Assembly (NCBI GenBank): GCA_004375895.1
Contig: SOJW01000068.1
Coordinates: 640-64,639, forward strand
Length of the DNA stretch: 64,000 nucleotides
Reading direction: 5' to 3'
DNA from: Candidatus Stahliibacteriota bacterium
Lineage (GTDB): Bacteria > Hydrothermota > Tepidihabitantia > B3-TA06
In this document: in pieces, positions 7,591 to 61,436 of the stretch
Layout of the letters: each line of letters opens with the position of its first letter
How positions within the stretch are numbered: the first letter of the stretch is position 1
The notes under the pieces: generated by a model
The model's database searches: none
Told to the model about the DNA's origin: nothing
Seen by the model: only the letters and a program-made list of their open reading frames with translations
Made by a program: the position numbers and the translations under genes

Positions 7591-8555
7591 AAGATAAACT
7601 CCTGGGGGTCTTCCTTCTTGTATGTAGCCAGTGGCGGCAGTGCCTCGGGGTCAACGCCTGCCTCGAACCCGAAACGCTCGCGCACCACAAGGTTCATCTT
7701 CCGGGTCAGCCATAACAATTTCACTCCCATAGGACACGCCTCCTCGCACGCACCGCAGTCTACGCACCGCCCGGCCTGGTGATAGGTTCGTATAAGCTGC
7801 CATATTGCGAGATCTGTGGGCTCCAACCCCTTGTCCACCCACTTTGGCTGGGTGATGTCTACAAAGCACTCGTCGCAGTTGCAGGTAGGACACGCCTGCC
7901 GGCACGCGTAGCACCGGATGCAAGCTGACATCTCAGACATCAGGTACTGGTAACGTTCCGGGGCAGGTTTGTTCTCGAATTCGCGGATCGAGTCGTAGCC
8001 GTCGTCTTCGACGTCCGGTTCTTTGATTGAATCCCCGACTACTACATCGGAGATAACCGGGGCATGATGTCTGCAAGCCACGCAGTTGGAGGGCATTAGG
8101 TCGAAACAGGAGATTTCTTTGGTTCCCTCGGTGGTCTCAAAAGACCACTTATCACCATTGGATGAAGCGGCAACAATTTCTCCCGCCTTTTCCCTTGCCA
8201 CCTGCCTTGACAGCATTCCCGGACAGTTAACCCCGATGATGAAGAGCCGGTCCCTATCTATTTGATTTTCCTTGAGTAAGGCCACGATCGAACGGGAGTC
8301 GCAACCCTTGGCCACTATGCCTATCTTGTGCGGGGTGTTACGGGTAGTACGATATCTTAAGAGATAATTTGCGAGATTTATGAGACCGAACGACGGCCAC
8401 ACGAGTTTATCGATATCCTCGACCTTGTCGATGAACACCGGCTGGGTGCGCATGGAGTTATCACCCTGGCCGTAGCCGATTACGAAATCTACCTTGCCTT
8501 CTTGCAATATCTTGCGCGCTTCCTCGCGGATGGAATTAGTGAGAGATTTAGACAT
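7587..8555 (-). CDS. FlxC/FdhB-like Fe-S protein (F420-reductase beta N-terminal-like plus 4Fe-4S dicluster)
   Basis: KIGIVAKGCDSRS, IIGVNC, CVACRHH, CIRCYACRQACPTCNC, GRCVDCGACEEACP; start at ATG 8555. Confidence 0.85.
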   Translation of the reverse strand: MSKSLTNSIREEARKILQEGKVDFVIGYGQGDNSMRTQPVFIDKVEDIDKLVWPSFGLINLANYLLRYRTTRNTPHKIGIVAKGCDSRSIVALLKENQIDRDRLFIIGVNCPGMLSRQVAREKAGEIVAASSNGDKWSFETTEGTKEISCFDLMPSNCVACRHHAPVISDVVVGDSIKEPDVEDDGYDSIREFENKPAPERYQYLMSEMSACIRCYACRQACPTCNCDECFVDITQPKWVDKGLEPTDLAIWQLIRTYHQAGRCVDCGACEEACPMGVKLLWLTRKMNLVVRERFGFEAGVDPEALPPLATYKKEDPQEFIL

Positions 8556-9165
8556 CACCCCGATTCCATTTTTCAAAGAAGCTCAACCCTTCAAATCTCT
8601 GCAAACCGGGATCGGGAATCAAAAAGCTCTTGTATACCTTTACCTGTTTCTTCTTCGTTTTTCTGAGACGTGCAAAGCGTTTTTCACGATGCGCCAGCTT
8701 GATCTTCCAGTTCCCTCCCATTCTCTTAACTATCCCATCTCTGGTTACTTGTCGTTTAGGAGGGTTGTAAATAAAGCATTCGAGTGTCTCAAGAACCTTC
8801 GAGGGGATTACCCAGTAGGTTCCTCCATGAATCTCACGCTCTTCCTCAGGTCTAAAAGCTTCTTCAATGAAAAAGAGGTAATAATAGTTTTCACGAGTGG
8901 TATACGACTTCAAGGTCAATGCTCCTATGCTGTGCCCCCTCCTGACGTGTGCCTTACCGTGGAACCTGGGCCGCACCACTAATTCTATCTCCAGATATTC
9001 AGATTTCCCTTTAACGTTACGTTTAATAATCCATGTACGCGGCCTCACTTCTCCATAAGGAAGGTACAACTGGCAACCCAGATTCAACAGCTTTAACATA
9101 ATAATAGTTTCAGCATAGTCAACTTCATTCATGTTATCTAGAATTGAACTCACGCTCTCATTCAC
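8548..9165 (-). CDS. Hypothetical basic protein, N-terminus resembles PD-(D/E)XK group-I-intron-like endonucleases with degenerate active site
   Basis: AETIIMLKLLNLGCQLYLPYG resembles E..v...Ll..G..V..P.G motif; canonical D and QxK not seen; overlaps both neighbours. Confidence 0.5.
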   Translation of the reverse strand: MNESVSSILDNMNEVDYAETIIMLKLLNLGCQLYLPYGEVRPRTWIIKRNVKGKSEYLEIELVVRPRFHGKAHVRRGHSIGALTLKSYTTRENYYYLFFIEEAFRPEEEREIHGGTYWVIPSKVLETLECFIYNPPKRQVTRDGIVKRMGGNWKIKLAHREKRFARLRKTKKKQVKVYKSFLIPDPGLQRFEGLSFFEKWNRGDV

Positions 9166-9589
9166 TTGGCCAATCCCTTTTCTTCAAAAACTGACTAGTA
9201 TCCTTAACCTGCTTGACTCCGTCGGTTACTTCCTTGACCACCTCGGCGAACTTACCGCCCTCGGCGGCAGAGACCCAGGAGAAGCGAACCCGGCCTTTTT
9301 CCAGACCCACGTATTCGAGCAAGTCGAGCATCGTTGCGAACTTGCGGCGGGCGTAGTAGTTGCCTTCAAGGTAGTGACAGTCCCCGGGATGACATCCGGA
9401 CACCAGCACCCCGTCAGCGCCTTCCTGAAGCGCTTTAAGGATAAACTGGGGGTTCACCCGTGCCGAGCAGGGCACGCGTAAGACACGCAGTGTCGTAGGA
9501 TACTGGATACGCGAGGTCCCTGCCAGGTCAGCACCGGCATAGGAGCACCAGTTGCATAAGAAAGCCAGGATTTTCGGATCATCGTTCAT
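9158..9589 (-). CDS. mvhD: MvhD/FlxD [2Fe-2S] subunit
   Basis: KILAFLCNWCSYAGADLAG, RVPCSARV, GCHPGDCHY, WVSAAEG. Confidence 0.93.
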   Translation of the reverse strand: MNDDPKILAFLCNWCSYAGADLAGTSRIQYPTTLRVLRVPCSARVNPQFILKALQEGADGVLVSGCHPGDCHYLEGNYYARRKFATMLDLLEYVGLEKGRVRFSWVSAAEGGKFAEVVKEVTDGVKQVKDTSQFLKKRDWPSE

Positions 9590-9591
9590 AT

Positions 9592-10806
9592 TCAATTTCC
9601 TCCGCCTGCCCGACCCGTGTTCTGGTTGTCGTGTTGGAACTTAGGCCAGGGGCTTGAGACCAGCCCTTTTGAATCGCTGTGAACCGCGTAAAAACAGCTA
9701 TCCAGTGACCCAACGTATACGGTCCCATCTGAGCCTATCGCTGGCGATGATTTTATCTCGCCGCCGATTTTATATCTCCACTTGCGTTCGCCTTCAGGCG
9801 TAAAAGCGTAAAGGTAACCTACCAGCTGCATGTTACTTAATTTCCTACCCACCCAGTCGTTCACCCCGAAGTATATGGTCCCATCCGAGCCTATGGTTGG
9901 AGTTGTTTCAACATTACCGTAACCAATTTCTTCGTCAAGTCTCCATTTTTCTGTGTAGTCCGAGTTCAGAACGCTGAAATGGTTCCCTCCTAAATATAGT
10001 GTACCGTCAGTATCTATTGCTGGCGAAGTCCACTCAGATGTCCAAACAACATATTGTAAAATGTCAAGCTTAAACTTAAGCTCCCCCTGGGGAGTAAACA
10101 CATAAAAACTACCCCCTTCCGTACAAAAACATATGTTGCCTTCACCATCTATCGCCATGGAAGAAATGGTGGTAGTGGACCACATACCAGGAACTTCAAA
10201 GCTCCATTTAAGATTACCTAGTGTATCTACTGCATAAATCATGTTACTAATACTGACATATAACGTGCCATCTAACCCTATCGCTGGAGGAAACATTGTC
10301 ATCCAACCTTTAATTTGTGATGATTCCCACTTCAGCTCTCCTTCAGGTGTGATTGCATAGAGACGACCACCGGTAGCCGCAACATATACAGTTCCATCAT
10401 GATCAATCGCAGGTGATGATAGTGTATAGTAGGTCTCACATTTCCATTTCAGCTTGCCTTCGGGTGAAATCGCATAGGTATAACCGTCCCACGGGTTGAT
10501 ATATACCGTTCCATCAGCCCCTATGGTAGGTGAAGCGACTATTTGCCCGTCAGTCTTAAAACTCCACTTGAGGTTCCCTTCAGGACTAAAGGCATACAGA
10601 CAACTGTCCATTGAGGTGACGTATACCGTTCCGTCATGTCCGATTGCCGGAGAAGACCTTATCGGGCCCCCGGTCTTGTACTTCCACTTCAGCGTACCCG
10701 GCCCCTCGGTTTTGCATTGAGTGGAGAGAAGTAAAACCACGCTGAAAAGTAAGGTGCTGAGAATCCTCAACTTACCTTTCAGTAACTGATGGTGTCGTCC
10801 ATTCAT
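9592..10806 (-). CDS. PQQ-binding-like beta-propeller protein, probable lipoprotein (paralog A)
   Basis: Repeated SSPAIG.DGTVY...LYA..P.G.LKW units; hydrophobic N-terminus ending TQC. Confidence 0.85.
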   Translation of the reverse strand: MNGRHHQLLKGKLRILSTLLFSVVLLLSTQCKTEGPGTLKWKYKTGGPIRSSPAIGHDGTVYVTSMDSCLYAFSPEGNLKWSFKTDGQIVASPTIGADGTVYINPWDGYTYAISPEGKLKWKCETYYTLSSPAIDHDGTVYVAATGGRLYAITPEGELKWESSQIKGWMTMFPPAIGLDGTLYVSISNMIYAVDTLGNLKWSFEVPGMWSTTTISSMAIDGEGNICFCTEGGSFYVFTPQGELKFKLDILQYVVWTSEWTSPAIDTDGTLYLGGNHFSVLNSDYTEKWRLDEEIGYGNVETTPTIGSDGTIYFGVNDWVGRKLSNMQLVGYLYAFTPEGERKWRYKIGGEIKSSPAIGSDGTVYVGSLDSCFYAVHSDSKGLVSSPWPKFQHDNQNTGRAGGGN

Positions 10807-15433: not shown

Positions 15434-16249
15434 CTACCCATCTACTACCTCCACGTACAAGGGACGCTCTTTTCTTATCTTATCGAGACGTGCCCTGGTT
15501 TCGCGCTCAAGCTCAACGATCAACTCGAACACCCGGTGGGCTGGGATTCCTGTTGCCTCAGCAACGTCAACTGCGGAACAAGGCTCTTTAAGATTTTCCA
15601 GAATCAGCCCCTTCTCGTACTCCTCTCGAAGTATATGCTTAATCATTGTATCGTAGTCTTGCGGATCGAGCTTCTCATCGAACACGTTGCCCTTGCGCAC
15701 AAGCTCCAGCTCCTTGGAAAGAAGCCAGCGCACCGGCTCAGACGTGCATACACGTTTCATTGCGGCGACCCGTAACACAAGCTCCGGCCTGCCAAGTGCT
15801 TGAGACGATAATGTTCCAAATTCCTTTAACTTTTCCTCAAACCCGTTGATAGCCTGGGCAAGCCCGAACGCGTAGGTTGTATCGGCATGATAGAAGGCGA
15901 CGCGGTCACGGCGCAGACCGGCGATCTCCAATAAATCGGCAAGATGGTTGATACGGGCCAGGGCATGATGGTTGCCTGGTTCGTAGTGGCAGTCACCCAG
16001 AGGACACAGGGCGAAGAACAGGCCATCGGCACCCTTTGTCAGCGCCTGGACCCCATCTGCAAGGTCGAACCTGGCAGAGCAGCGCAAATTGATAAAGGCG
16101 ATGTCGGCAGGGTAGGACATACGCTGCATACCGGCGTAATCAAGCGCAAACCCGGCCCAGTCGCAGGTGAAGCCTAATATCTTAGGAACATGCTCAGATT
16201 CTCCAGAACTTGCTGATTGGGGATGAGTTGTGTGTGTTACGGGCTTCAT
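15434..16249 (-). CDS. MvhD-like [2Fe-2S] protein with C-terminal extension ending in a winged-helix-like segment
   Basis: KILGFTCDW, LRCSARF, LCPLGDCHYEPGN; C-terminal SAVDVAEATGIPAHRVFELIVELE. Confidence 0.8.
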   Translation of the reverse strand: MKPVTHTTHPQSASSGESEHVPKILGFTCDWAGFALDYAGMQRMSYPADIAFINLRCSARFDLADGVQALTKGADGLFFALCPLGDCHYEPGNHHALARINHLADLLEIAGLRRDRVAFYHADTTYAFGLAQAINGFEEKLKEFGTLSSQALGRPELVLRVAAMKRVCTSEPVRWLLSKELELVRKGNVFDEKLDPQDYDTMIKHILREEYEKGLILENLKEPCSAVDVAEATGIPAHRVFELIVELERETRARLDKIRKERPLYVEVVDG

Positions 16250-17835
16250 GATGTCTCACCCCAAGCTCGTATCTGAGCTTTAATAGTATCTCTGGACTTG
16301 ACTGGATCAGAGATGGCGAACACCGGGCATCCGGCGATGCACAAACCACATAACGTGCAGAATCTTGGCGACATACGCGCTTTATGACCGGTATCGGTCC
16401 GCTCTAAGATAGGCGCTCCGTAAGGACATACTGCGGCACAGTAGCCGCATCCGATGCAGACTTCTTCATCGATTTGTGCACCAGGCAGTCGCTTGGGTTT
16501 CGTATCGAATAACGCCTTGATACGGGCGGCCACAACGAACGCGTGGTTTATGGTTTCCTCCATGGGCATAGGCGTGTGCGCACCGCCCACAACGAAGATA
16601 CCAGGATGCACCACGTCCCGGGGTCGTATCCGGTAGCGGCGCTGGGCAAGGTAACCGTTCGTATCCTGTGGAATCCTGAGGGCTTGTGCGAGATTCTCAG
16701 AAAGGTTGCCCACCAGTTTTCCCAGCTTCACGTGCGCACCCTTCCAACCCGTAACACCCGTAACACCCGTACCCCTACGGGGCATTTTCACTATTACTCG
16801 GAGCTTGCACTCAGGTCGCAAGGACATAACACCCGTAACACCCGTAACACCCGTAACACCACCTGGGATACTCCCTCTGATGATTTCGATGTTATGTTTT
16901 TCCGCACCCTCCTTGAACCCTTCGGGAAGAACCACAGATTCAGGCATAAAGAAAACGATTCGCTCCTCCGGCTTTTCGTGCCGCAGCATCACCGCATCCC
17001 AAAAAGCGGTTTCCAGAAGGAACGGATGTACCCCTTCCTTGACCTCGAACGCCAGCGGACCGCGGAACTTACCCCTATCGCGCCACCGGTACTCGAACTC
17101 GAAAAGATTGCCTCCGACCTCACGCACGCCGGTGGCAACAACAATCGCTCCCACCTCCTCTTCGGCATCATTGGAAAGCTTTACTTCGTAGCCGTGCAGC
17201 GATTCTTCAAGGTTTACAAGCTCTGTTTCCTGATAAACCGTTACGTGAAGTTTGTCCTGTAACCCATCGTAAAGTCGATGCAAAAGCTTTTCGGAATCCT
17301 CGCCAGAGGGCCAGACCGTGCGGGTTCTGCGCAGGGTTCCGCCTAAGCGATTGGATTTTTCAATAAGAACAACGTCTATACCTTGCTCAGCTAAAGCACG
17401 CGAACACGCCAGCCCGGCAGGACCGGCACCGATGATTAGTACACGTTCCAAGAGGTCGAGATCCCATTCGGTAAGATGCTCTCTGGTTACGAGCTCTGCC
17501 AACCCCATAGAAAGGAGTCTTTGGGCCTTAAGTGTAGCTTCGGACTTGTTATCATGAACCCAGGCGCAGCGCTCGCGCAGGTTTACGAGCTGGTAGGGAT
17601 TACCTCCGGCCAGGAATTTGAAGATGCTCCCGTGGGTTCTCTCGTCGCACGCGCCGAAGAGGAGGGCTCCTTCGACACCATTGAGATGCTCACGGGCCGC
17701 GCCGTCGCCTAGTTGGGCAAGTGTCTCTACTGATTGGACTTGTGCGAGAGAGTTAAAGTGTTTCTTTAACTTCTCAAGGTCAATCTTTTGGGAGATTTCG
17801 CACCCTTGGCACAAGAAAATTTTAACCTTTTCCAT
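16246..17835 (-). CDS. Divergent HdrA-like flavoprotein (530 aa) carrying an in-frame repeat insertion
   Basis: FLCQGC, GACDERTHG, VNLRERCAWVH, IIGAGPAG, GIFVVGG, CIGCGYCAAVCPY, CTLCGLCIAGCP; lacks QCVGSR..CC motif. Confidence 0.8.
   Translation of the reverse strand: MEKVKIFLCQGCEISQKIDLEKLKKHFNSLAQVQSVETLAQLGDGAAREHLNGVEGALLFGACDERTHGSIFKFLAGGNPYQLVNLRERCAWVHDNKSEATLKAQRLLSMGLAELVTREHLTEWDLDLLERVLIIGAGPAGLACSRALAEQGIDVVLIEKSNRLGGTLRRTRTVWPSGEDSEKLLHRLYDGLQDKLHVTVYQETELVNLEESLHGYEVKLSNDAEEEVGAIVVATGVREVGGNLFEFEYRWRDRGKFRGPLAFEVKEGVHPFLLETAFWDAVMLRHEKPEERIVFFMPESVVLPEGFKEGAEKHNIEIIRGSIPGGVTGVTGVTGVMSLRPECKLRVIVKMPRRGTGVTGVTGWKGAHVKLGKLVGNLSENLAQALRIPQDTNGYLAQRRYRIRPRDVVHPGIFVVGGAHTPMPMEETINHAFVVAARIKALFDTKPKRLPGAQIDEEVCIGCGYCAAVCPYGAPILERTDTGHKARMSPRFCTLCGLCIAGCPVFAISDPVKSRDTIKAQIRAWGETS
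16748..16859 (+). repeat. 112-bp (CCCGTAACA)n-flanked element, copy 1, inside the HdrA-like gene
   Basis: 101/112 identical to 50128-50239 by manual alignment. Confidence 0.9.
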
Positions 17836-17947
17836 CACCTCCCCCTTGACGGGGGAGGACTAAGGTGGGGGTCACCCTCTATTATTATTGTTGAGGTTTG
17901 AGCGAACTTAAAGGGTCGCACTACATGGAGAGGTGTGTTACGGGTCA

Positions 17948-18637: not shown

Positions 18638-18728
18638 AACACTATCTCTCCATCATTACAGATTCCAGCATTATCCAGACGATCTAAAACATATACGGAC
18701 AGTCCAAAAGGTGTGTTACGGGCGTGGT

Positions 18729-20663
18729 TCATTGTGACTTCCCCCCGGAGTGTGTGTTACGGGTGTTACGGGTCACCGCGTCGAATTTACACACGTCAAG
18801 ACAAACGCCGCATTTGATGCAGGCATCCTGATCTATCACGTGGACTTGTTTGCGTTCGCCTGTAATCGCGTCAACCGGGCAGTTGCGGACGCATAAGGTG
18901 CATCCGGTGCAGTTTTCGTTGATCTCGAAGTTGATAAGCGCGGTGCACACCCCGGCAGGGCAGCGCTTATTCTTAATGTGTTCAAGGTACTCGTCGCGGA
19001 AGAAACGCAAGGTGGAAAGCACTGGGTTTGGTGCCGAGCCGCCTAAGGCACACAAAGACGAATCTTGCATCGCCTTACCCAGCTCTTCCAGGAGATCAAG
19101 GTCCGATTCCTGTCCCTCGCCCTCAGTGATACGTTTCAAAATCTCGTGGGTTTGAGATAAACCTTCCCTGCATGGCACGCACTTGCCGCAGCTTTCATCC
19201 TTCAAGAACTCGGTGAAGAACTTGGCCACGTCCACCATGCAGGTCTCGGAGTCCATAACGATCATGCCGCCCGAGCCCATCATCGAGCCTGCCTCCCACA
19301 GCCTGTCGAAGTCTACTTCAAGGTCCAAGAGATTCGCGGGGATACAGCCTCCGGAAGGCCCACCGGTCTGCACCGCCTTGAACTTTTTGCCCTCGGGTAT
19401 CCCGCCGCCGATGTCGTAGATGATTTCCCTGAGTGTAATTCCCATGGGAACTTCCACGAGACCCGCGCGGTTCACCTTGCCCACCAGGGAGAAGATCTTG
19501 GTTCCGGTAGACTCCGGATTGCCGATCGAGGCAAACCACTCCGCGCCCCGCACCGCGATTACTGGAACGTTGGCCCAGGTCTCCACGTTGTTGAGTGTGG
19601 TGGGTTGGTTCCATAAACCTTTTTCGACGGTGTGGACGTACTTGGCGCGGGGTTCGCCCGGCTTGCCCTCGATTGACGCCATAAGTGCCGTGGATTCGCC
19701 GCACACGAACGCACCCCCGCCCTTCACGATTCTGAGATCGAAGTTGAACCCGGTACCGAAGATGTCAGATCCCAAAAGACCGTGCACACGTGCGTCATCT
19801 ATCGCCTTCTCGAGCCGCTTTACTGCCAAGGGGTACTCGGCGCGGACGTATACATAGCCCTGCTGTGAACCTATGGCAAAGGCTCCGATGAGCATCCCTT
19901 CAAGGATGGAATGCGGATCGCCTTCGAGAAGCGAGCGATCCATGTATGCGCCAGGGTCGCCCTCGTCCGCGTTGCAGATAACGTAGCGGTAGCCTTCTGC
20001 GGCCTTGCAGTAGCGCCACTTGCGGCCGGTTCCGAATCCGCCGCCCCCGCGGCCACGCAGACCGGAGGCATCCACCATATCAATAACCTCGTCCGGCTTC
20101 ATCTCGGTAAGGACTCTGTAAAGGCCGCGGTATCCGCCCCGCGCAATATACTCCTCAATGGATTCAGGGTCGATGATCCCGCAGTTGCGCATCGCGATAT
20201 GTTGCTGCTTGGCGGTAAATTCCAGCCCAAACAGATTCTCCACAGCCGCAATTTCGGGCGGAACATTCTCCAGGGGATAGCGGTAGCGGGTGTTACGGGT
20301 GTAATCTTCAATCTCTTCTATCTTTCCTAAGAGCCCCTCTTTGACGACCTTGCCTTCCTTGACTGCAGAAAGAATCTCGGCGACCTGCTCCGGTTTCACG
20401 TGCGAGTAAGTTATCCTGGGCCAGCCCGGTTTGAGGATATCCATAAGCGGCTCCTCATAGCACATTCCGATACAGCCGGTTCGGGCCGACGCGGCTCCGT
20501 TGCCGAACTGTTTTAAGGTCTCTTCGACTGCATGGATGACATCCTTGGCTCCTGATGCGATGCCGCAGGTGGCAGCACCAACCATCACTTTAAGATGCGG
20601 CGGATGTATCCTGCGCTCACCCTCGGACGCTACCTTTTCCAAGTCGGCTAATGATTTTATCAT
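18729..20663 (-). CDS. NuoF/HydB-like FMN/NADH-binding subunit with N-terminal thioredoxin-like [2Fe-2S] and C-terminal ferredoxin
   Basis: GLRGRGGGGF, CNADEGDPGAYMDR, AFVCGESTAL, ESCGKCVPCREG, CALG, CTGCTLC..CP, CIKCGVC. Confidence 0.93.
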   Translation of the reverse strand: MIKSLADLEKVASEGERRIHPPHLKVMVGAATCGIASGAKDVIHAVEETLKQFGNGAASARTGCIGMCYEEPLMDILKPGWPRITYSHVKPEQVAEILSAVKEGKVVKEGLLGKIEEIEDYTRNTRYRYPLENVPPEIAAVENLFGLEFTAKQQHIAMRNCGIIDPESIEEYIARGGYRGLYRVLTEMKPDEVIDMVDASGLRGRGGGGFGTGRKWRYCKAAEGYRYVICNADEGDPGAYMDRSLLEGDPHSILEGMLIGAFAIGSQQGYVYVRAEYPLAVKRLEKAIDDARVHGLLGSDIFGTGFNFDLRIVKGGGAFVCGESTALMASIEGKPGEPRAKYVHTVEKGLWNQPTTLNNVETWANVPVIAVRGAEWFASIGNPESTGTKIFSLVGKVNRAGLVEVPMGITLREIIYDIGGGIPEGKKFKAVQTGGPSGGCIPANLLDLEVDFDRLWEAGSMMGSGGMIVMDSETCMVDVAKFFTEFLKDESCGKCVPCREGLSQTHEILKRITEGEGQESDLDLLEELGKAMQDSSLCALGGSAPNPVLSTLRFFRDEYLEHIKNKRCPAGVCTALINFEINENCTGCTLCVRNCPVDAITGERKQVHVIDQDACIKCGVCLDVCKFDAVTRNTRNTHSGGKSQ

Positions 20664-21208
20664 TTACCAGGCTTCCCGGAGGTTTGGGAGGAGGGCGAGG
20701 GCTCTGGTGGGTGTCTTACGGGTGTTACGGGTGAGGAGGGCCGATACTTCTTGATGATCTCCGGCACCTTATCCTGTCGTACGTGGGCGTGGGTCTCCTC
20801 GTCGATCATCACCGCAGGTGCGATGGAACAGCATCCGACGCATCGCACTCCCTGCAGGGTGAACTGGCCGTCTCGAGTTGTCTCGTCCTGCTCAACACCA
20901 AGATCGCGCTTGAACCGATCCATAATCAGGCTAGCTCCCTTAACGTGACACGCTGTTCCCAGACAGACATTAATTATGTGCTTACCTTTGGGTTTTAATG
21001 AGAACGCGGAATAGAACGTAGCCACATGATAGACCTGAGCTACAGGTATGCGCAATCTGGCCGCGACCTGGCGCATGGCCGCTTCGGGCAGATACCGGTA
21101 GCGCACCTGAAGCTCCTGAAGGGCCGCTATGAGAGACGCCCTCTTTTCTTCAACTTCGTTAAGGATGGTATAAGCGTTTTCGCTCACCAACCCTTTTAGT
21201 TGATCCAT
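20660..21208 (-). CDS. NuoE/HydC-like [2Fe-2S] subunit; start at ATG 21208
   Basis: VATFYSAF, INVCLGTACHVKG, VRCVGCCSIAPAVMID. Confidence 0.92.
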   Translation of the reverse strand: MDQLKGLVSENAYTILNEVEEKRASLIAALQELQVRYRYLPEAAMRQVAARLRIPVAQVYHVATFYSAFSLKPKGKHIINVCLGTACHVKGASLIMDRFKRDLGVEQDETTRDGQFTLQGVRCVGCCSIAPAVMIDEETHAHVRQDKVPEIIKKYRPSSPVTPVRHPPEPSPSSQTSGKPGK

Positions 21209-46553: not shown

Positions 46554-46631
46554 GTTATTTGAACGTTAATTAAACTGGATATCAGGCGCACGGCATCTTG
46601 TGTCTTACGGGTTGCTCTCCCTGTGTCCCCT

Positions 46632-50021: not shown

Positions 50022-50360
50022 ATGTTTGAAACGGTGCTTATAATACTCATCGCGGGCGCGGTTGCGATTCTTGCGGCAATGCGTTTTATCGCCGCCGTAA
50101 GAAAGCTGGCCAGCCGCGAGCCCGACACCCGTAACACCCGTAACACCCGTACCCCTTCGGGGCATTCTCATAATTACTCGGAGCTTGCGCTCCGCTCACA
50201 AGGAAATAACACCCGTAACACCCATAACGCCCGTAACACGCATGCGTCCTCCAGACGCTACGACACCCGGCGCCAGGACAAGCCGCCGCTGGTGTTCTGG
50301 GCCGTAGCCTCACCCCTGCTTGCCGCCGCCTGCGTCACCGTTATCCTGCTGATGCTTTAA
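50022..50360 (+). CDS. Two-TM small protein whose loop is largely the 112-bp repeat element
   Basis: Promoter TTGACT-16-TACAAT at 49985-50012; hydrophobic N- and C-termini; TRNTRN loop. Confidence 0.55.
   Translation: MFETVLIILIAGAVAILAAMRFIAAVRKLASREPDTRNTRNTRTPSGHSHNYSELALRSQGNNTRNTHNARNTHASSRRYDTRRQDKPPLVFWAVASPLLAAACVTVILLML
50128..50239 (+). repeat. 112-bp (CCCGTAACA)n-flanked element, copy 2
   Basis: Matches 16748-16859; internal hairpins CCCC-TTC-GGGG and GAGC-TTGC-GCTC. Confidence 0.9.
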
Positions 50361-50407
50361 ACCACCCCAGACGCCTTCGCCACCTTCTCTCAACCGATCC
50401 ATTGTCC

Positions 50408-50643
50408 AATCTTCAATCTGCAATCTTCCAATCTTCAATCCTCCAATCTTCAATCTTCCAATCTTCCAATCTGCAATCTGCCAATCTTCTAATCTTCAAT
50501 CGCGACGCAGTCGCCCCTATTGCTGTTCGCCGTGAGCTGTCAGCCGTGAGCTGTCAGCTGTGAGCTGTCATTTGTCCATCTTTTGTCCATCTTTTGACCA
50601 GCTTTTGACCAGCTTTTGTCCAGCTTATTTTGAGTGTTACGGG
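50408..50643 (+). repeat. Composite repeat block: CAATCTTC(C) run, GCGACGCAGTCGC hairpin, TGAGCTG run, five 11-bp units, GTGTTACGGG
   Basis: Hairpin 50502-50514; TTTGTCCATCT/TTTGACCAGCT x5 at 50571-50626; decamer 50634-50643. Confidence 0.85.
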
Positions 50644-50695
50644 TTGACTTTTACCCCTTCTCGGCATACAATTTAGCTAAAAATTGGAGGAAAAC

Positions 50696-52186
50696 ATGGC
50701 CGAAGAGTACAAGAATTTTATCGGGGGAGAATGGGTTAAGTCCAAGTCAAATAAGACTTTCGAGAATCGCAACCCTGCCGATACCAGTGACCTTGTGGGA
50801 ACGTTTCAGCTTTCTTCACGAGATGACGTAGATGCGGCAGTTACAGCCGCCCAGGCCGCATTTCCAAATTGGCGCGACACCCCGGCCCCGGAGCGCGCGG
50901 ATTATATGTATCGTGTTGCCAATAAGTTACGCGAACGCAAGGAGGAGATTGCGAAGCTCATGACCCGTGAGATGGGCAAGGTGATTGCCGAAACCCGGGG
51001 CGACATGCAGGAAGGCATCGACACCGCCGACTTCGCCGCAGGCGAGGGCCGCCGCATGCACGGCCAAACCGTCCCCTCCGAGCTGCGCAACAAGGCGGCT
51101 TACGTTATCCACAGACCAATGGGCGTGTGGTGGCTGATTACCCCGTGGAACTTCCCCATCGCCATCCCCACCTGGAAGACGTTCCCCGCCATAACCACCG
51201 GTAATACGATAGTTATCAAGCCAGCCACCGACACTCCTGCCTGCACCGCAAAGCTCATGGAGATTCTTGACTCCGCCGGCATCCCCAAGGGCGTTATCAA
51301 CTACGTGACCGGCTCGGGCCGCATTGTGGGCGAACACCTCATCAACCACCCGGACATCAAGGGCATAAGCTTTACCGGTTCGAGTGAGGTCGGTAAGCGG
51401 ATCGCGGAGGTCACCGGCAAGACCCTGAAACGGTGCTCACTAGAGCTGGGCGGCAAGAACGCGCAGATCGTGATGGCGGACGCAAACCTCGAACTGGCGT
51501 TGGACGGCGCTCTGTGGGGCGCGTTCGGAACCACCGGTCAGCGCTGCACCGCGACCTCGAGGATCATTGTGCAGGAAGGCGTGCACGACGAGTTCCTGGC
51601 CGAGCTGGTCAAGCGCGCCAAGGCGCTCAAGGTAGGCAACGGTCTGGACGAGTCGGTCGAGATGGGTCCACTGGTGTCCAAGGCTCAGCAGGAGACCGTG
51701 GCAAGCTACGTGAAGATCGGTCTTGAGGAAGACAAGGCCGAACTGGTCTGCGGCGGACATGCTCTCACCGACGGGGATTGCGCCAAGGGCTTCTTCTTCG
51801 AACCCACGATATTTGATAAGGTTACGCCCGATATGCGCATCGCCCAGGAGGAGATCTTCGGGCCGGTGCTTTCGATTCTTACGGTAAAGAGCCTGGATGA
51901 GGCGATTGAGGTTCTGAACGGCACGGTTTACGGGCTTTCGTCCTCGATTTACACCCAGGACGTGAATTCTGCGATGCGGGCAATTGAGCGCATCGAGGCG
52001 GGCATTACCTACGTGAACGGCCCGACCATCGGCGCTGAGTGCCACCTGCCGTTCGGCGGCGTAAAGGAAACCGGCAACGGACATAGAGAAGGCGGCTGGA
52101 CAGCCTACGAGATCTTCACCGAAATGAAAACCGTCTATATCGACTACAGCGGGAAGTTACAACGAGCTCAGATTGATAATAAATAG
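50696..52186 (+). CDS. NAD(P)-dependent aldehyde dehydrogenase
   Basis: ITPWNFP, IKPA, FTGSSEVG, LELGGKN, GQRCTA, EEIFGPV, PFGG.K..G. Confidence 0.95.
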   Translation: MAEEYKNFIGGEWVKSKSNKTFENRNPADTSDLVGTFQLSSRDDVDAAVTAAQAAFPNWRDTPAPERADYMYRVANKLRERKEEIAKLMTREMGKVIAETRGDMQEGIDTADFAAGEGRRMHGQTVPSELRNKAAYVIHRPMGVWWLITPWNFPIAIPTWKTFPAITTGNTIVIKPATDTPACTAKLMEILDSAGIPKGVINYVTGSGRIVGEHLINHPDIKGISFTGSSEVGKRIAEVTGKTLKRCSLELGGKNAQIVMADANLELALDGALWGAFGTTGQRCTATSRIIVQEGVHDEFLAELVKRAKALKVGNGLDESVEMGPLVSKAQQETVASYVKIGLEEDKAELVCGGHALTDGDCAKGFFFEPTIFDKVTPDMRIAQEEIFGPVLSILTVKSLDEAIEVLNGTVYGLSSSIYTQDVNSAMRAIERIEAGITYVNGPTIGAECHLPFGGVKETGNGHREGGWTAYEIFTEMKTVYIDYSGKLQRAQIDNK

Positions 52187-58638: not shown

Positions 58639-59913
58639 TCAACCACCCTCCCCCATCGCTTTCTTTACACGGGCAATGCCGCGGTCGGCCTTCTCAACTT
58701 CGTGCTTTGCACCAATCTTTACATACATCTCACGAGCACGTTGAAAATAGGATAGGGCTTCTTTGAACTGCTTCAATGTCTCATAAACCACACCGATGTT
58801 GTTGAGTTGGTTAGCCTGGACTTCTGGATTCCCGATTTGTTCAGCGAGTTTTAAGGAACGCTCATGATACTCAAGCGCCTTCTCTGTATCCCCCAAGTCA
58901 CCGTAGACATTGCCAATGTTGCCGAGGGCGTTAGCCTGAATCTCTAGGTTCCCGATCTTCTTCGCTATCTTCAGCGCCTTCTGGTGATAATCAAGCGCCT
59001 TCTTTGGCTCGCCCAGGGTCTGATAGACAAGGCCAATGTTGCCAAGTTGGTGGGCTTGGCCCTCGAGTCTGCCGATCTTTTTGTTGATCTCCAGCGCCCT
59101 CTCGTGAAACTCAAGCGCCTTCTGTGGCTTGCCTAAGGTTTGATAGACAAGGCCGATGTTGCCGAAGGCATTAGCTTTGCTTTCAAGTCTGCCGAGCTTT
59201 TCTTCTATTTCTAAGACGCGATTGTAGAACTCAAGCGCCTTTTCTGGCTCGCCCAAGGTTTGGTAGACATTGCCGATGTTGCCGAGGACACTAGCCTGAA
59301 TTTCAAGGTTGCCGATCTTTTCTGCTACCTCCAACGCCTTCTGATGATACTCCAGCGCCTTGTGCGGCTCGCCCAGGGTTCGATAGACAAGGCCGATGTT
59401 CCCGAGGGCGGCGGCCAGCGCTTCTTCGATTTTAGCATTCTCGGCGATGCGGATCATCTCAAGGAAGGTCTGCTCGGCGTCCTTCCTGTCGCCTTTATCA
59501 AATTGGCTCAAACCAATCAGGTTCAAAAGCGCGCAGCGCTCGTTGTCATCTGTCTCTAAGTTAAAGACTTCTTGGAACTTATCAATCGCCTCGGCATGGT
59601 GATACTTGTCCATTGCATCAAGGCCCTCGTCAAGGAGTTTGGCCTTGTCGGGTTCGGTAGTTTGGGGCAGACCATCAAGGTAAACGGGTAAATTCCTGAA
59701 CTTCTCTTCCAAGATTCTTTCAAATTTCTGCTCTAGGTCTGTAGTTATATCTTGCTTTAGTTTTTCTTGCTCTTCCCTCCTGCGGACCTCCTCTTCCTTC
59801 CGTTTCTTTTTCTTTCTGCATTCTTTAACGAGAAACCAAATGAACCATCCAATTCCGACAGCGGCGCCAACACCCCCTAAGGCTTTAAGGAAAGTCACCC
59901 AAAAGGGACTCAT
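58639..59913 (-). CDS. Membrane-anchored TPR protein with 40-aa (120-bp) tandem repeats
   Basis: Repeated A..LGNIG.VY.TLGEP.KAL.YH..AL; leaderless promoter TTGACA-16-TATGAT at 59919-59946. Confidence 0.88.
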   Translation of the reverse strand: MSPFWVTFLKALGGVGAAVGIGWFIWFLVKECRKKKKRKEEEVRRREEQEKLKQDITTDLEQKFERILEEKFRNLPVYLDGLPQTTEPDKAKLLDEGLDAMDKYHHAEAIDKFQEVFNLETDDNERCALLNLIGLSQFDKGDRKDAEQTFLEMIRIAENAKIEEALAAALGNIGLVYRTLGEPHKALEYHQKALEVAEKIGNLEIQASVLGNIGNVYQTLGEPEKALEFYNRVLEIEEKLGRLESKANAFGNIGLVYQTLGKPQKALEFHERALEINKKIGRLEGQAHQLGNIGLVYQTLGEPKKALDYHQKALKIAKKIGNLEIQANALGNIGNVYGDLGDTEKALEYHERSLKLAEQIGNPEVQANQLNNIGVVYETLKQFKEALSYFQRAREMYVKIGAKHEVEKADRGIARVKKAMGEGG

Positions 59914-60000: not shown

Positions 60001-60879
60001 TTAGAATCTTTCAAGTATCTCTTTCTTCTTCGCCTCGTACTCCTCGTTGGTGATTAAATCATCCTCAAGCATCTTCTTGAGCGTTTTGAGCCTGGCAACC
60101 AGGGCATCGGTTTCGTCTCCAGTCTCAGGCTTGGGTTGTTCCCCTGAAGGCTGTTGCTGAGGGGTCTGACCGACCTGATCGCTCTCCATGGGCTTGCCCA
60201 GAACCTCCTGGAACTTATCCATCTCCTCCTTTGGGATGGAGATGCGCTTGATGTTGAAGTTCACTATCTCGACCCCGTAGCGGCCAAACTCGCGGGATAT
60301 AGCGCTGCCGGTAAAGGTGGAAAGCTCGTTCAGCTGGGCGTTCGCCTGGAAAACGGAAGTCTTCTGCTTCTCGAAGAACTCGGCCATCGCATCGGAAAAC
60401 TTTTGGTCTATCTCGCCGATAAAGTGTTCCTCTATCCGGGCTGTATCAGTCATCTTGAGTGTCCCGACTATCTGAGTAACAAAGCTGCGTGAATCGGTAA
60501 TTCGCAGACCCCAACGTCCATAGGCCCTGACATTGACAGGGTAGTTGTATACCGAATCAATGATGGGTATGGGGGTCTTGGTTCCCCATTTAAGGTCACG
60601 TCTCACCGTCTTGTTGACAAACCAGACCTCTGCGGTAAAAGGGGTATCTCCGCCGAAAGGCAGGTTGACCAGTCGGTGAAGCAGGGGCAGGTTGCCTGTG
60701 GAAAGGGTGTGGGTGCCCGGACCGAATACGTCAAGGGCCTCTCCCCTCTTGACAAAAACCGCCTCCTGGCTCTGGCTCACTACAAGCTGGGAGCCCAGTC
60801 TGAGCTGTTCACCTGGATACCGCCATACAAGTATTTCCTCAGACGGGGCATCAAACTTTATTCTATCTACGACTGCCAC
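60001..60879 (-). CDS. SPFH (virion core/YdjI-like) protein with C-terminal SHOCT domain
   Basis: LVVSQSQEAVFVK.G, FGPGTHTL.T.NLP, PFTAEVWFVN, WGT..PI; L..LKKMLEDDLITNEEYEAKKKEIL. Confidence 0.85.
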   Translation of the reverse strand: MAVVDRIKFDAPSEEILVWRYPGEQLRLGSQLVVSQSQEAVFVKRGEALDVFGPGTHTLSTGNLPLLHRLVNLPFGGDTPFTAEVWFVNKTVRRDLKWGTKTPIPIIDSVYNYPVNVRAYGRWGLRITDSRSFVTQIVGTLKMTDTARIEEHFIGEIDQKFSDAMAEFFEKQKTSVFQANAQLNELSTFTGSAISREFGRYGVEIVNFNIKRISIPKEEMDKFQEVLGKPMESDQVGQTPQQQPSGEQPKPETGDETDALVARLKTLKKMLEDDLITNEEYEAKKKEILERF

Positions 60880-60906
60880 TTGCTACCTCCTGGAACCAAA
60901 AGCTCA

Positions 60907-60970
60907 CCCGTAACACCCCAAAAACATACCCAAAAGATACCCAAAAGATACCCAAAAGATACCCAAAAGA
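60907..60970 (+). repeat. CCCGTAACAC followed by 11-bp CCCAAAAGATA tandem array
   Basis: Directly visible. Confidence 0.85.
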
Positions 60971-60986
60971 AGAGTTACCATCCCGG

Positions 60987-61436
60987 TTAATACCAGGGTT
61001 TGGGCGCTGCAATGATCTGGATCAGGGTGGTGATCGCCAGAATAACAACGATCAGCATTATCCCCCCGGAAATCCCAATCGCTATCCAGGCGAAAACCTT
61101 GCCCTTCGGCTCTTTCTTGAGCGCTATGATCCCAACGATAAGGGCAGGGATAAAGGTGATAATAACCGCGAGTCCGACGAGCGCCAGAACGAACGCTGTA
61201 ATCGAGAGTGTTTGAGAGGTTAATCCTGCCCCGACTGCAGGTGCTGGTACTATCTCTTGCTGGGTTGCTTGAGGTGAAGTGGTGGGTGTTACGGGAGGTG
61301 GTGTTACGGGTACGGGTGTTACGGGAGTGGGTGTTACGGGTGCGGGTCTTACGGGCTCCGCCCCGCAATGAGGACAGTAGGTTGCATCAGGGGGAAGCTC
61401 TGAGCGGCAGTACTCGCAAATCCTTCTATCACTCAT
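60987..61436 (-). CDS. Zinc-ribbon + Pro/Thr linker + DUF4190-like membrane protein
   Basis: CEYC..CPHCG, PVT repeats, SITAFVLALVG..GIIALKK..G...AWIAIG. Confidence 0.82.
   Translation of the reverse strand: MSDRRICEYCRSELPPDATYCPHCGAEPVRPAPVTPTPVTPVPVTPPPVTPTTSPQATQQEIVPAPAVGAGLTSQTLSITAFVLALVGLAVIITFIPALIVGIIALKKEPKGKVFAWIAIGISGGIMLIVVILAITTLIQIIAAPKPWY

Follow-up and report, generated by a model that had tools for sequence, protein, structure and literature searches.

A family-restricted nonamer repeat and its docked hairpin module in WOR-3 bacteria, a candidate selfish DNA repeat system

The window, by which we mean the whole 64-kb stretch of DNA analysed here, contains an hdr/nuo cluster at 15.7-20.8 kb (NuoE-, NuoF-, HdrA- and MvhD-like genes by Pfam), an operon at 31.6-46.5 kb and a short word dispersed within and between genes (Table 1). 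A recount found CCCGTAACAC/GTGTTACGGG 24 times in exact form across the window, while 100 dinucleotide shuffles gave an expectation of 0.04 +/- 0.2 copies and a maximum of 1. An earlier, sequence-only reading had listed 23 of these, all at their correct positions, and had overlooked the plus-strand copy at 15769; of its three variants, the one at 61346 was well placed and those given at 20711 and 46600 were each 2 nt off, lying at 20713 and 46602. These three sites, all CCCGTAAGAC, and one at 6194 are the four that were added when one mismatch was allowed. That thirteen exact copies fall in the hdr/nuo cluster and that the operon has none (no exact decamer lies between 20732 and 50127) was borne out, as were the frames read as TRNT twice in the NuoF-like gene, as PVT in the NuoE-like C-terminal tail and the start of the MvhD-like gene, and as VTG in the HdrA-like gene. 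The copy at 18713, read as TRNT in a FlxC-like protein, is more likely intergenic, since the Pfam match fits a gene start at 18637. Gene predictions were made with our own crude caller, and every genome compared is an incomplete MAG.

Table 1. Repeat units and composites in the window and the state of the orthologous sites
Position	Strand	Feature	Related genomes
8335..8344	-	Single unit, 5' end or leader of FrhB/FdhB-like Fe-S protein ORF 7587-8576(-)	Unit in G004; G001 shorter by exactly 9 bp; none in G009
15769..15778	+	Single unit, antisense within MvhD-like gene 15434-16249(-)	Kept in G001 and G004; same-length non-unit sequence in G006 and G009
16234..16243	-	Single unit, codons 3-5 (PVT) of MvhD-like gene, right past the overlapping HdrA-like stop	G002: HdrA-like and MvhD-like genes fused in frame across the orthologous unit
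16748..16859	+	Composite in HdrA-like gene 16246-17838(-): two units, split unit with 57-bp module, three units; module-bearing 66-mer 16766-16831; translation GVTGVTGVTGVMSLRPECKLRVIVKMPRRGTGVTGVTG	
17935..17944	-	Single unit 4 nt past TGA stop (TGATGA) of 2Fe-2S/4Fe-4S gene 17948-18637(-), same orientation	Spacer strongly variable in G001 and G004
18713..18722	-	Single unit in 91-bp spacer from NuoF-like stop (18729) to next gene start (18637)	
18754..18772	-	Two tandem units, C-terminal tail (VTRNTRNT...) of NuoF-like gene 18729-20663(-)	Three units in G001 and G004
20290..20299	-	Single unit (TRNT), N-terminal region of NuoF-like gene	G004 two units; G001 unit, 66-bp module and variant unit, all in frame; G009 none
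20713..20731	-	Unit and variant (CCCGTAAGA), PVTPVR, C-terminal tail of NuoE-like gene 20660-21328(-)	Stretch shorter in G001
46602..46611	-	Variant unit (CCCGTAAGAC) ~55 nt upstream of TTGACA-N17-TATAGT promoter of the 31.6-46.5 kb operon; adjoins REP-like hairpin and 8-mer arrays	
50128..50239	+	Composite in ORF 50022-50360(+) (112 aa, no Pfam match, hydrophobic N- and C-terminal stretches): two units, module, unit, variant, unit; TRN frame; 66-mer 50146-50211, module 90% identical to that in 16748-16859	
50634..50649	-	Single unit (TGTTACGGG on + strand) abutting -35 box TTGACT, promoter of gene 50684-52186(+)	See text
60907..60916	+	Single unit, then 11-mer array (AAAAGATACCC x4.5), in spacer between zinc-ribbon gene stop (60987) and start of gene 60001-60879(-)	
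61286..61355	-	Four units and one variant, 15-bp spacing, in ORF 60987-61436(-); encode Pro-Val-Thr-rich linker from zinc ribbon to hydrophobic C-terminal stretch (presumed membrane helix)	

A 10-mer count showed that CCCGTAACAC is the most frequent 10-mer of the G000 genome (2.2 Mb), and Tandem Repeats Finder gave a period of 9, the true unit being the nonamer CCCGTAACA (extended consensus A-CCCGTAACA-CAC), so that decamers overlap by one base. The genome-wide enrichment raised for checking by the earlier reading was confirmed, with 303 decamers and 310 nonamers in G000 versus 1-5 copies of the reversed control. The units form 178 clusters, 102 of them solo units and others short arrays of period 9 or also 6-15, at a density of ~1 per 7 kb. 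No other 6 kb of the genome is as dense as the hdr/nuo cluster, which has seven arrays (simulated maxima: mean 4, largest 7, 300 runs). The 310 exact nonamers compare with 371 copies summed over all 27 one-mismatch variants, a total within the 330-1080 background of composition-matched control words; exact copies thus dominate over near-misses at background, and the copies are young or actively renewed.

The repeat is present in 11 of 11 genomes from a single, uncultured WOR-3 family (four genera, protein identity ~70% across the family), at 36-361 copies each, versus 0-5 copies in each of 20 outgroup genomes from other families of the same class. No comparably hyper-abundant 10-mer was found in two other families (200 kb checked per family). 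Both orientations are equally frequent, and the units showed no lagging-strand, GC-skew or replichore bias, the last of which had been put forward earlier as a check. In an unrelated phage family, GTTACGGG repeats serve as origin iterons.

In G000, 163 of the 310 nonamers (53%) lie within predicted CDS, in the RNT (47), VTG (41), LRV (33), PVT (31) and CYG (11) frames and never in the stop (TAA) frame, and the encoded peptides sit in protein tails and linkers. The use of five of six frames in both orientations supports spread and maintenance at the DNA level, as had been proposed, and not as a peptide, and orthologues from genomes or sites that lack the repeat also lack the motif peptides, which are insertions (9n bp). 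Non-coding copies concentrate with the 5' side of the unit against stop codons and -35 boxes. Arrays overlapping a stop or starting within 20 nt after it are 38 sense versus 1 antisense (14 supply the TAA themselves and 13 begin at +1), a bias that arises in part automatically, since TAA occurs in one frame of the sense unit, and no array orientation bias was found more than 20 nt from stops. A TTGAC box pointing away lies within 16 nt of the 5' side of 24 arrays, against a background of 1.5% per 16-nt window, compared with no array for the same box on the 3' side and one array for each of the two configurations pointing toward the unit. The 5' flank is enriched in ACA (16-fold), TAA (7-fold), GTA (3.6-fold) and CAA (3-fold), and the 3' flank in CAC (29-fold) and CCC (14-fold). 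The 5'-junction preference could in part reflect selection and loss of neutral spacer DNA instead of targeting.

The unit also hosts a mini-element, a two-hairpin module of 45 or 57 bp that docks between CCCGTA and ACA. G000 has ~24-28 copies, two of them in the window; all 24 that were scored follow CCCGTA, precede ACA and share the orientation of the unit, and tandem modules abut directly (...ATA/CCC...). Thirteen scored modules are intergenic and 11 lie in ORFs, every one of these in an open frame, and the module subfamily of VTG-frame genes carries two changes that abolish stops in that frame. The two hairpins are short, mutually dissimilar and thermodynamically unexceptional (z -0.5 to -1.3); one base pair of hairpin 2 switches among A-U, G-C and U-A in 7 of the 30 copies and stays paired throughout. 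Module types follow the genus (the long form in g1 and g3, the short one in g2) and span three of the four genera. The suggestion that the decamer is the footprint of a small mobile element thus held for the existence of such an element, which that reading had itself not noticed, but the decamer is not simply that footprint, because genomes with few or no detectable modules keep 36-210 decamers and single units can arise de novo without the module.

Comparison of G000 and G001 (~94% identical) showed that 7 of 23 orthologous arrays were unchanged, while the others differed in length by +/-9n bp, in 8- or 13-bp units or in the presence of entire modules. Arrays thus gain and lose units and come and go between these species, and the repeat spreads and varies in number as DNA even within essential genes. 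The HdrA-like site is empty in G009, giving the empty site that the earlier reading had asked for, holds units only in G006 and G002, and holds units and module in G000, G001 and G004, with 1+1 flanking units in G001 versus 2+3 in G000. The same three states occur at the NuoF and C67 sites, and the insertion polymorphism at 20290 is recent. The 50684 promoter carries the unit in G000, G001, G004 and G005 and lacks it in G003, G007, G009 and G010; since these four outgroup genomes retain the same -35 box, a single unit arose there by de novo insertion. In relatives, the copy at 15769 and two G001 sites are matched by equal-length non-unit sequence, as expected of decay or substitution and not of insertion, and the 15769 copy may be chance or substitution-derived. 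Across genera, most unit sites are not orthologous. One array has hybrid native-like units (CCTGAAACA) interspersed in it, and in G006 spacer variants have been amplified to arrays of period 11-13. For a recombination hotspot, also proposed earlier, the evidence is anecdotal: a single 91-bp deletion from one unit to another and a single array allele that lineages have apparently exchanged.

We consider it somewhat probable that the decamer marks a selfish, lineage-specific DNA repeat system of two layers, propagated by polar DNA-level insertion and slippage, and we infer that unit insertion is active and enzyme-mediated. In the first layer, the 9-bp unit CCCGTAACA would insert as DNA with fixed polarity, its 5' junction falling after A-ending triplets, namely TAA or TGA stops, CAA (complementary to TTGAC of a -35 box) and ...GTA, ...GTAA and ...ACA of the unit itself. 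Since the 3' part of the unit resembles its own preferred target, insertions would pile into tandem arrays, in which replication slippage and unequal recombination would gain or lose units and amplify spacer variants. In the second layer, the 45- or 57-bp modules would enter one specific site, between CCCGTA and ACA, in a single orientation. The reading frame would be preserved because insert lengths are 9n and 57 bp, and copies would survive where they are harmless: right after stops (some providing TAA), in front of promoters, or in protein termini and linkers in one of the five stop-free frames (TRN, VTG, LRV, PVT and CYG).

No transposase or other catalyst was identified for the repeat or the module in the family genomes examined, IS630 DDE_3 being found in 1 of 11, IS110 DEDD in 0 of 11 and reverse transcriptase in 3 of 11. 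Y1_Tnp, found in 10 of 11, does not follow the distribution of the repeat, being equally common outside the family and not flanked by units (none of the four Y1 genes of G000 is). Polar nick-and-join chemistry of the HUH/Y1 or site-specific type is a tentative suggestion that we regard as rather doubtful. As in the PATEs (IS200/IS605-derived, HUH), insertion has a fixed orientation and occurs 3' of a specific short sequence, with internal hairpins and with neither terminal inverted repeats nor target duplication; unlike in PATEs, the hairpins differ from each other, a cognate TnpA could not be linked and the lagging strand is not favoured. A lagging-strand or GC-skew bias is the usual trace of IS200/IS605-type single-strand transposition. 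We know of no precedent for a 9-bp mobile unit, which is far below any known transposon size.

Compared by analogy, the repeat is closest to RPE (Rickettsia palindromic elements), STRR and REP and belongs to none of them. The STRR of heterocystous cyanobacteria, short tandemly repeated repetitive heptamers that Mazel and colleagues reportedly described in 1990, are known as intergenic repeats. Both they and the present repeat are lineage-specific short units (7 and 9 bp, respectively) dispersed as short tandem arrays; unlike STRR, the nonamer keeps the reading frame, has half of its copies inside genes, is commonly solo, hosts a nested mini-element and forms polar junctions at stops and -35 boxes. 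REP/REPIN are likewise lineage-specific short repeats of very high abundance, presumably mobilised in trans by a single-copy domesticated enzyme (RAYT, a Y1 protein), and Y1_Tnp genes are present in G000; however, the present unit is non-palindromic, is not confined to extragenic space and forms direct arrays instead of inverted pairs, and the Y1 genes are as frequent in repeat-less relatives. RPE are small non-coding repeats inserted in frame in unrelated housekeeping genes and translated as an extra peptide (review PMC10969869). The modules resemble them in that 11 of 24 lie in ORFs, in open frames, with orthologues revealing the insertion, but they are 45-57 bp instead of ~100-150 bp, are fixed in position and orientation within the nonamer whereas RPE are not known to have a dedicated 9-bp tandem-repeat dock, and come from an unrelated lineage and sequence.

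It is unlikely, in our estimate, that drive or selection instead maintains the nonamer for recognition, as a DNA-uptake-like signal or as the (iteron) site of a family-specific DNA-binding protein, and that the module merely exploits this abundant target; a protein-binding site had also been proposed by the earlier reading. Exact copies of a 9/10-mer that far exceed near-misses, balanced orientations, the lack of replichore bias, family-wide presence and absence outside, tolerance in coding frames with intergenic enrichment, the 24 arrays touching or neighbouring -35 boxes and the array allele seemingly moved by recombination all fit such a signal, and the phage iterons indicate that the word can be a protein-binding site. 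The DUS of Neisseriaceae and the USS of Pasteurellaceae are similarly exact, family-specific 9-12-mers in both orientations, enriched near gene ends and tolerated within coding frames. Known uptake sequences occur at ~1 per kb, however, so that the density here is about seven times lower, and new copies arose as inserted 9n-bp units and tandem arrays and not by substitution. The orthologous 50684 promoter functions in four genomes that lack the unit, individual sites turn over between 94%-identical species, the 9-bp array period is off the helical repeat, and no dialect turned up in the two other families checked.

We also regard as improbable that the composite is the sole mobile entity, with units as its terminal direct repeats and solo units or arrays left after module deletion, like solo LTRs. 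The module is always flanked by and co-oriented with units, each filled versus units-only polymorphism can be read in either direction, and module families spanning three genera are old; moreover, the CCCGTA spacer (15-bp spacing) ties for third commonest and is exactly what a deletion from the module-start CCC to the next unit would be expected to leave. Against this, arrays exceed modules ~7:1 in G000, G008, G010 and G005 have 75, 36 and 210 decamers and 0, 0 and 2 detectable modules, respectively, and no module trace accompanies the de novo 50684-promoter unit in any of its four carriers; this explanation likewise lacks a transposase and accounts no better for the polar 5' junctions.

A passive minisatellite, in which a few ancestral arrays changed by slippage and unequal crossing-over without active insertion, is largely refuted and very unlikely: it fits the mostly whole-unit gains and losses between G000 and G001, the hybrid units and the amplified spacer variants of G006, but 102 of 178 clusters are single units that cannot slip, sites are largely non-orthologous among genera, a solo unit was gained at a naive site (the 50684 promoter), near-misses stay at background despite the ~70% protein identity span of the family, and the polar junction bias is left unexplained. 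Equally hard to credit is selection on RNA or protein, for a C-rich, Rho-loading (rut-like) tract after stops or a flexible PVT/TRN/VTG linker peptide: although sense RNA of the unit is rich in C and poor in G (4 C and 1 G per 9 nt), sense arrays predominate just after stops and coding units sit in tails and linkers, the unit encodes five different peptides in both orientations, the orientation bias is partly automatic and gone beyond 20 nt, and promoter-adjacent units run opposite in sense to the downstream gene.

An exact search of the 64-kb window for the decamer CCCGTAACAC/GTGTTACGGG returned 24 copies, against 0.04 +/- 0.2 (maximum 1) in dinucleotide shuffles. All 23 positions listed in the sequence-only reading were placed correctly, and one copy on the plus strand, at 15769, had been overlooked. 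When one mismatch was allowed, four sites were added (6194, 20713, 46602 and 61346), the last three of which carry the variant CCCGTAAGAC. Tandem Repeats Finder showed that the decamers overlap by one base and that the true unit is the nonamer CCCGTAACA. The assembly of the window's genome (G000; 2.2 Mb, 75 contigs, 53% GC; window at 640-64639 of contig C57) contains 303 decamers and 310 nonamers, the latter split 152/158 between the strands, at a density of one unit per 7 kb. The decamer is the top-ranked 10-mer genome-wide and most of the top ranks are its cyclic shifts; the genome-wide enrichment on which the proposal of a DNA-level repeat depended was therefore confirmed. The exact unit is present 310 times and all 27 of its one-mismatch variants together 371 times, compared with 330-1080 for composition-matched control words. 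Since these near-misses are within the control-word range, the exact sequence of the unit is either maintained or constantly renewed.

A pattern search of 31 related genomes showed that the decamer is present at 36-361 copies per genome in all 11 genomes, from four genera, of one WOR-3 family (G000-G010), and at 0-5 copies per genome in 20 genomes of nine other families of the class, three of which belong to the same order. A reversed control word gave equally low counts. No hyper-abundant 10-mer that could represent a "dialect" of the repeat was found in 200 kb each of two genomes from other families (G022 and G027), in which the top 10-mers reached only 4-6.5 per 100 kb and resembled ordinary coding words.

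The 310 units of the window's genome form about 180-197 clusters, or arrays, the count varying with the linking distance. Single units make up 102 of 178 clusters (57%) and the remaining clusters hold 2-5 exact units. Neighbouring exact units are spaced by 9 bp (n=46), 10 bp (n=9), 12 bp (n=12) or 15 bp (n=13), and also by 11, 13 and 18 bp, the spacers being mainly partial units (C, CA, CCC, CAC, CCCG and CCCGTA). CCCGTAACA(C) is without dyad symmetry and the arrays are direct repeats. The base preceding an array is an adenine in 63% of cases, and the triplets ACA, TAA, GTA and CAA are enriched 16-, 7-, 3.6- and 3-fold, respectively, on the 5' side, as are CAC (29-fold) and CCC (14-fold) on the 3' flank.

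A simple dicodon model predicted 2153 genes and a coding share of 89%, these calls being approximate, and the cluster of NuoE-, NuoF-, HdrA- and MvhD-like genes of the window (hdr/nuo cluster) was annotated with Pfam. This cluster is the densest stretch of the genome, with 7 arrays in 6 kb, while the maxima of 300 simulated runs had a mean of 4.0 and a largest value of 7.

Genes of the hdr/nuo cluster, in window coordinates
Feature	Position	Strand	Basis
NuoE-like	20660-21328	minus	ORF listing and Pfam
NuoF-like	18729-20663	minus	Pfam
2Fe-2S/4Fe-4S protein	17948-18637	minus	Pfam
HdrA-like	16246-17838	minus	Pfam
MvhD-like	15434-16249	minus	Pfam
HdrA-type fusion, 1012 aa	12167-15205	minus	Pfam

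Genome-wide, 163 of the 310 units are located in coding sequences, 134 are intergenic (43%, while intergenic DNA makes up 11% of the genome) and 13 extend across a gene end. The coding units are distributed over five frames, named here by the peptide that the unit encodes (RNT 47, VTG 41, LRV 33, PVT 31 and CYG 11), and none was found in the sixth frame, which reads TAA. The frame independence first noticed in the window holds for the genome; with five frames in use and units in either orientation, selection at the peptide level is excluded. Unit orientation showed no bias in this genome, either relative to local GC skew (45/42 versus 47/47, Fisher p = 0.88; the skew also tracks gene strand) or relative to local gene strand, on which ground a replication motif or a polar motif of the Chi/KOPS type was rejected. 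A tRNA-derived origin was rejected because none of the 48 tRNA genes contains a unit; some arrays lie 2-5 nt from tRNA gene ends.

The arrays show polarity at stop codons and at -35-like boxes. Among those that overlap a stop codon or lie up to 20 nt downstream of one, 38 are in the sense and 1 in the antisense orientation; the unit's own TAA is the stop codon in 14 of these stop-linked arrays, and 13 begin exactly one base after TAA, TGA or TAG. A TTGAC(A) box pointing away from the unit was found within 16 nt of its 5' side in 24 of 197 arrays (background 1.5%), versus none on the 3' side of the same 197 arrays. In the window, TGTTACGGG at 50634-50643 is directly followed by TTGACT-N17-TACAAT, a ribosome-binding site and the ATG of gene 50684-52186. 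The spacer upstream of this gene (50405-50626) is made up almost wholly of unrelated short tandem arrays, consisting of the 8-mer TCCAATCT (13 copies), the 14-mer GCCGTGAGCTGTCA (3 copies) and the 11-mer TTTTGTCCAGC/TTTTGACCAGC (5 copies); others are found at 46702-46756 and 48175-48388. In all four genera the orthologous promoter is still preceded by the 11-mer array, and the genome contains 108 copies of TGGTCAAAAG. These short arrays are probably protein-binding iterons. Another 11-mer array, AAAAGATACCC (4.5 copies, 97% matches), occupies 60921-60970, directly after the unit at 60907 and between two minus-strand genes. The REP-like hairpin at 46640-46680, ATTGCTCCTTTTGTGC...GCACAAAAGATCGCAG, represents a family present in about 137 copies (TGCGATCTTT / AAAGGAGCAT). 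A 120-bp tandem repeat (58865-59410; 4.6 copies, 73% matches) lies within ORF 58639-59913 on the minus strand, which is probably a repeat-protein gene.

Comparison of orthologues gave evidence that the repeats are insertions. The HdrA-like protein of G009 is insert-free (…VGEVG–PSWQGA…), those of G006 and G002 contain (VTG)n alone, and those of G000, G001 and G004 contain (VTG)n, a 22-residue peptide encoded by a hairpin module (described below) and (VTG)n again. At position 20290, in the NuoF-like gene, there is one unit in G000, two in G004 and none in G009; in G001 the site holds a unit followed by a 66-bp module and a variant unit, with the frame kept throughout. The repeat-free orthologues of G009 thus lack the motif peptides at both sites, as expected if these peptides are insertions. 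Judging from intact frames, the module would be translated in the HdrA-like protein, in the NuoF-like protein of G001 and in a 112-aa ORF. The insert region of the predicted HdrA-like structure, a poor model (mean pLDDT 49, from 6 sequences), has no secondary structure and a pLDDT of 21-38, and residues 240-380 fell outside the alignment with solved HdrA (5odc). In G002, the HdrA-like gene is fused to the MvhD-like gene, and a single open frame runs across a nonamer (…AWGPVTHSS…; 981-3221 of locus L004, contig C149); their counterparts in the window share an ATGA overlap immediately ahead of the unit at 16234.

We then compared G000 with 417 kb of one close relative, G001 (aligned DNA about 94% identical). 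Only 7 of 23 orthologous arrays were unchanged. The others had gained or lost 9, 18, 27 or 36 bp or units of 8 or 13 bp, or differed by the presence or absence of a 123-bp double module; one difference is a deletion of 91 bp that lies between two units. On contig C67, a coding site holds 4-14 units in G000, G002 and G004, interspersed with native-like CCTGAAACA units, and is empty in G001, G003 and G005. Its immediate flanks track the presence of the array and not the relationship given by the outer flanks, which suggests that the array allele was exchanged by recombination. The clearest instance of a single unit gained de novo, where the site had no earlier resemblance to it, is the promoter of gene 50684-52186, where a unit abuts the -35 box in G000, G001, G004 and G005 and the identical TTGACT box is kept without a unit in G003, G007, G009 and G010.

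The two larger clusters of the window, at 16748-16859 and 50128-50239, share 90% identity over 113 bp, and both consist of CCCGTACCCCTWCGGGGCATTYTCA..ATTACTCGGAGCTTGCRCTC..CAAGGAMATAACA with units on either side. Alignment of the copies, of which there are about 24-28 in the genome, showed that this hairpin module is a 57-bp insert between the CCCGTA and the ACA of one unit. A short form of 45 bp lacks the second hairpin, forms of 101-104 bp carry an extra nested hairpin, and forms of 123-126 bp are two modules joined directly (...ATA|CCC...). The module has the orientation of its flanking units in every copy, and all 24 copies scored follow CCCGTA. Its ends, CCCCTTCGG... and ...CAAGGAAATA, have at most CCTT/AAGG in common when aligned by eye, and its junctions fit a 2-bp TA duplication (CCCG-TA-module-TA-ACA) and equally an insertion between CCCGTA and ACA without duplication. 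Left and right ends pair at 51-126 bp only, and no longer element with these ends was found in G000. The two hairpins differ from each other: the first is CCCC-TNC-GGGG with the loop variants TTCG, TACG, TCCG and TGCG, and the second is CGGAGC-TTRC-GCTCCG, one pair of which is A-U in 23 copies, G-C in 5, U-A in 2 and unpaired in none. This switching base pair lends modest support to a conserved stem; the folding energies are unexceptional (z -0.5 to -1.3). A known RNA family was rejected, since Rfam gave no match at gathering thresholds for the whole window nor at E<=5 for 50080-50300. Thirteen of the 24 scored copies are intergenic and 11 are in ORFs (TRN frame 7, VTG 2, CYG 2). The module consensus is open in the PVT, TRN and CYG frames, and a VTG-frame subfamily has two changes that eliminate the stops of that frame. 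An insert of about 120 bp at 3973-4110 of contig C68, unrelated to the module, also has units on both sides, and the units may thus receive small elements of more than one type.

BLAST searches with the module plus its split unit (66-mer) found 21-32 copies in each of five genomes of the window's genus, 5 in G007 and 2 in G009. G005 has 2 copies versus 210 decamers, G006 has 11 diverged copies versus 361 decamers, and neither G008 (75 decamers) nor G010 (36 decamers) yielded a module. Paired units 40-70 bp apart were also searched for: the short module type predominates in G006 and G009 and the long type in G007, while G008 gave arrays only and G010 nothing. Modules are thus old and widespread, but unit abundance does not track module abundance across the family. 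We treated the unit as primary and regard a derivation of the units from composite unit-module elements, as their remnants, as an unlikely rival.

Several candidate enzymes were then considered; the family genomes are MAGs, which are prone to losing IS copies, so that the absence of an enzyme weighs less than it would in closed genomes. Y1_Tnp (PF01797) is encoded by 10 of the 11 genomes of the family and by 10 of the 20 outgroups, and no unit lies within about 400 bp of the four Y1_Tnp genes of G000. A RAYT link was rejected, as the Y1 genes are neither unit-flanked nor co-distributed with the repeat. An IS630/Tc1-type parent targeting TA was rejected because DDE_3 is present in 1 of 11 family genomes, and the one-way orientation of the module also speaks against a symmetric TA target. 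IS110/IS1111 bridge-RNA recombinases would suit an orientation- and sequence-specific insertion into repeats; their DEDD transposase was found in 0 of 11 family genomes and this class was also rejected, as was a telomerase-like or retron-like templated addition (RVT_1 in 3 of 11). None of these four obvious enzyme classes fits, which makes the repeat a concrete starting point for finding an as yet unrecognised activity that inserts DNA sequence-specifically.

The best-supported picture is one in which DNA would be inserted with a fixed polarity beside triplets ending in A. The GTA, GTAA and ACA of the unit would themselves be such targets, which would account for tandem growth and for the 6-, 7- and 9-bp offsets. 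Slippage and recombination would then reshape the arrays, selection would leave them in harmless places, and the hairpin modules would parasitise them by docking at a single bond within the unit. The preferred junction would be provided by stop codons, and by the complement of TTGAC, exactly where insertion is neutral, a coincidence that can explain the pile-ups at stops and -35 boxes. Insertion by HUH/Y1 chemistry is a tentative analogy, proposed because insertion is oriented, apparently free of duplication and 3' of a short word, and held at that level because strand bias and a linked enzyme are both missing. Oriented insertion 3' of a short target, without terminal inverted repeats or an evident target duplication, is shared with IS200/IS605-type mini-elements (24/24 modules after CCCGTA in unit orientation; unit arrays polar at the 5' junction). 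However, the lagging-strand-template bias of that class was not seen (Fisher p = 0.88; the skew also tracks gene strand). As to a cognate TnpA, which would recognise similar subterminal hairpins at both ends, the module has two hairpins that differ from each other, and Y1 genes are present but unlinked.

We also consider, as a rather improbable but broader reading, that the nonamer is the smallest self-propagating DNA element yet seen, a "micro-insertion" of 9-13 bp: a family-specific, sequence-directed enzyme of unrecognised kind would write units, always with the same polarity, 3' of triplets that end in A, and the same activity would move the 45/57-bp modules into the unit. This would represent a new class of polar insertion machinery, by which protein linkers, gene ends (stop codons and gene fusions) and promoter contexts would be remodelled family-wide. 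A role of the nonamer as a recognition sequence, either a putative uptake signal or a protein-binding iteron, seems unlikely: like a DNA uptake sequence, the nonamer is a hyper-abundant, exact, strand-even and lineage-specific oligomer, but uptake sequences occur about once per kb and arise mainly by point substitution, whereas the unit occurs once per 7 kb and is gained in insertions of 9n bp. It would be the first such signal in the phylum. A passive minisatellite, in which slippage acts at existing arrays only, is very improbable in view of the solo units, which make up 57% of clusters, the non-orthologous sites, the appearance of a solo unit de novo and the lack of decayed copies.

Defining features set the repeat apart from RPE, REP/RAYT and IS200/IS605 elements. 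As a dispersed short tandem unit, it resembles the STRRs of cyanobacteria. Rickettsia palindromic elements (RPEs) are inserts translated in frame (PMC10969869), as the present inserts would be from their intact frames, but they are elements of Rickettsia of about 100-150 bp, whereas the present element is from a WOR-3 MAG, measures 45-66 bp and has no Rfam match. Polarity is what the repeat shares with the mini-elements of REP/RAYT or IS200/IS605. REP/REPIN sequences are imperfect palindromes of 20-40 nt, essentially extragenic, and their RAYT (Y1) gene is flanked by and co-distributed with the repeat; here, the arrays are direct repeats without dyad symmetry, predicted coding sequences contain 163 of the 310 units and 11 of the 24 modules, and neither Y1 relation was found. 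Classical MITEs have terminal inverted repeats and a parent IS with matching ends, while the module ends share at most CCTT/AAGG and no such parent was found in G000 (end pairs at 51-126 bp), these genomes being MAGs. A full-text search for the 9-mer matched unrelated papers only. Should the selfish reading hold, a single family within an uncultured phylum harbours a two-tier selfish DNA system not described in the literature searched.

The repeat edits core energy-metabolism genes, adding 3-40 residues within HdrA-, NuoF- and NuoE-like subunits. It also provides the stop codons of 14 genes, bridges the fused HdrA and MvhD genes of a sister species and lies flush with promoters. It is a natural experiment on the tolerance of flavin and Fe-S enzymes to in-frame insertions, and its arrays are hypervariable strain-typing markers for WOR-3 metagenomes.

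Unit dimers were also found in 37 viral contigs. Most of these either represent an AT-rich, unrelated family of phages whose origin iterons are GTTACGGG or carry imperfect coding repeats with a 9-bp period, which by eye may be collagen-like. The phage family is represented by L149 and about 12 IMG/VR contigs like it, with a GC of about 0.41 and a tetranucleotide correlation with G000 of about 0. In these contigs (9430-9720 in L149), numerous GTTACGGG repeats pointing either way surround an AT-rich core. This region is probably a replication origin with iterons, because it is located just 3' of the primase and DUF5906/VapE-like helicase genes, and its use of the same word as the unit is probably a coincidence. 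Only the IMG/VR contigs L152 and L166, which carry unit dimers, are host-like (tetranucleotide r = 0.83 and 0.73 with G000; GC 0.54-0.56), and they may be viruses or proviruses of the WOR-3 family that likewise gather units.
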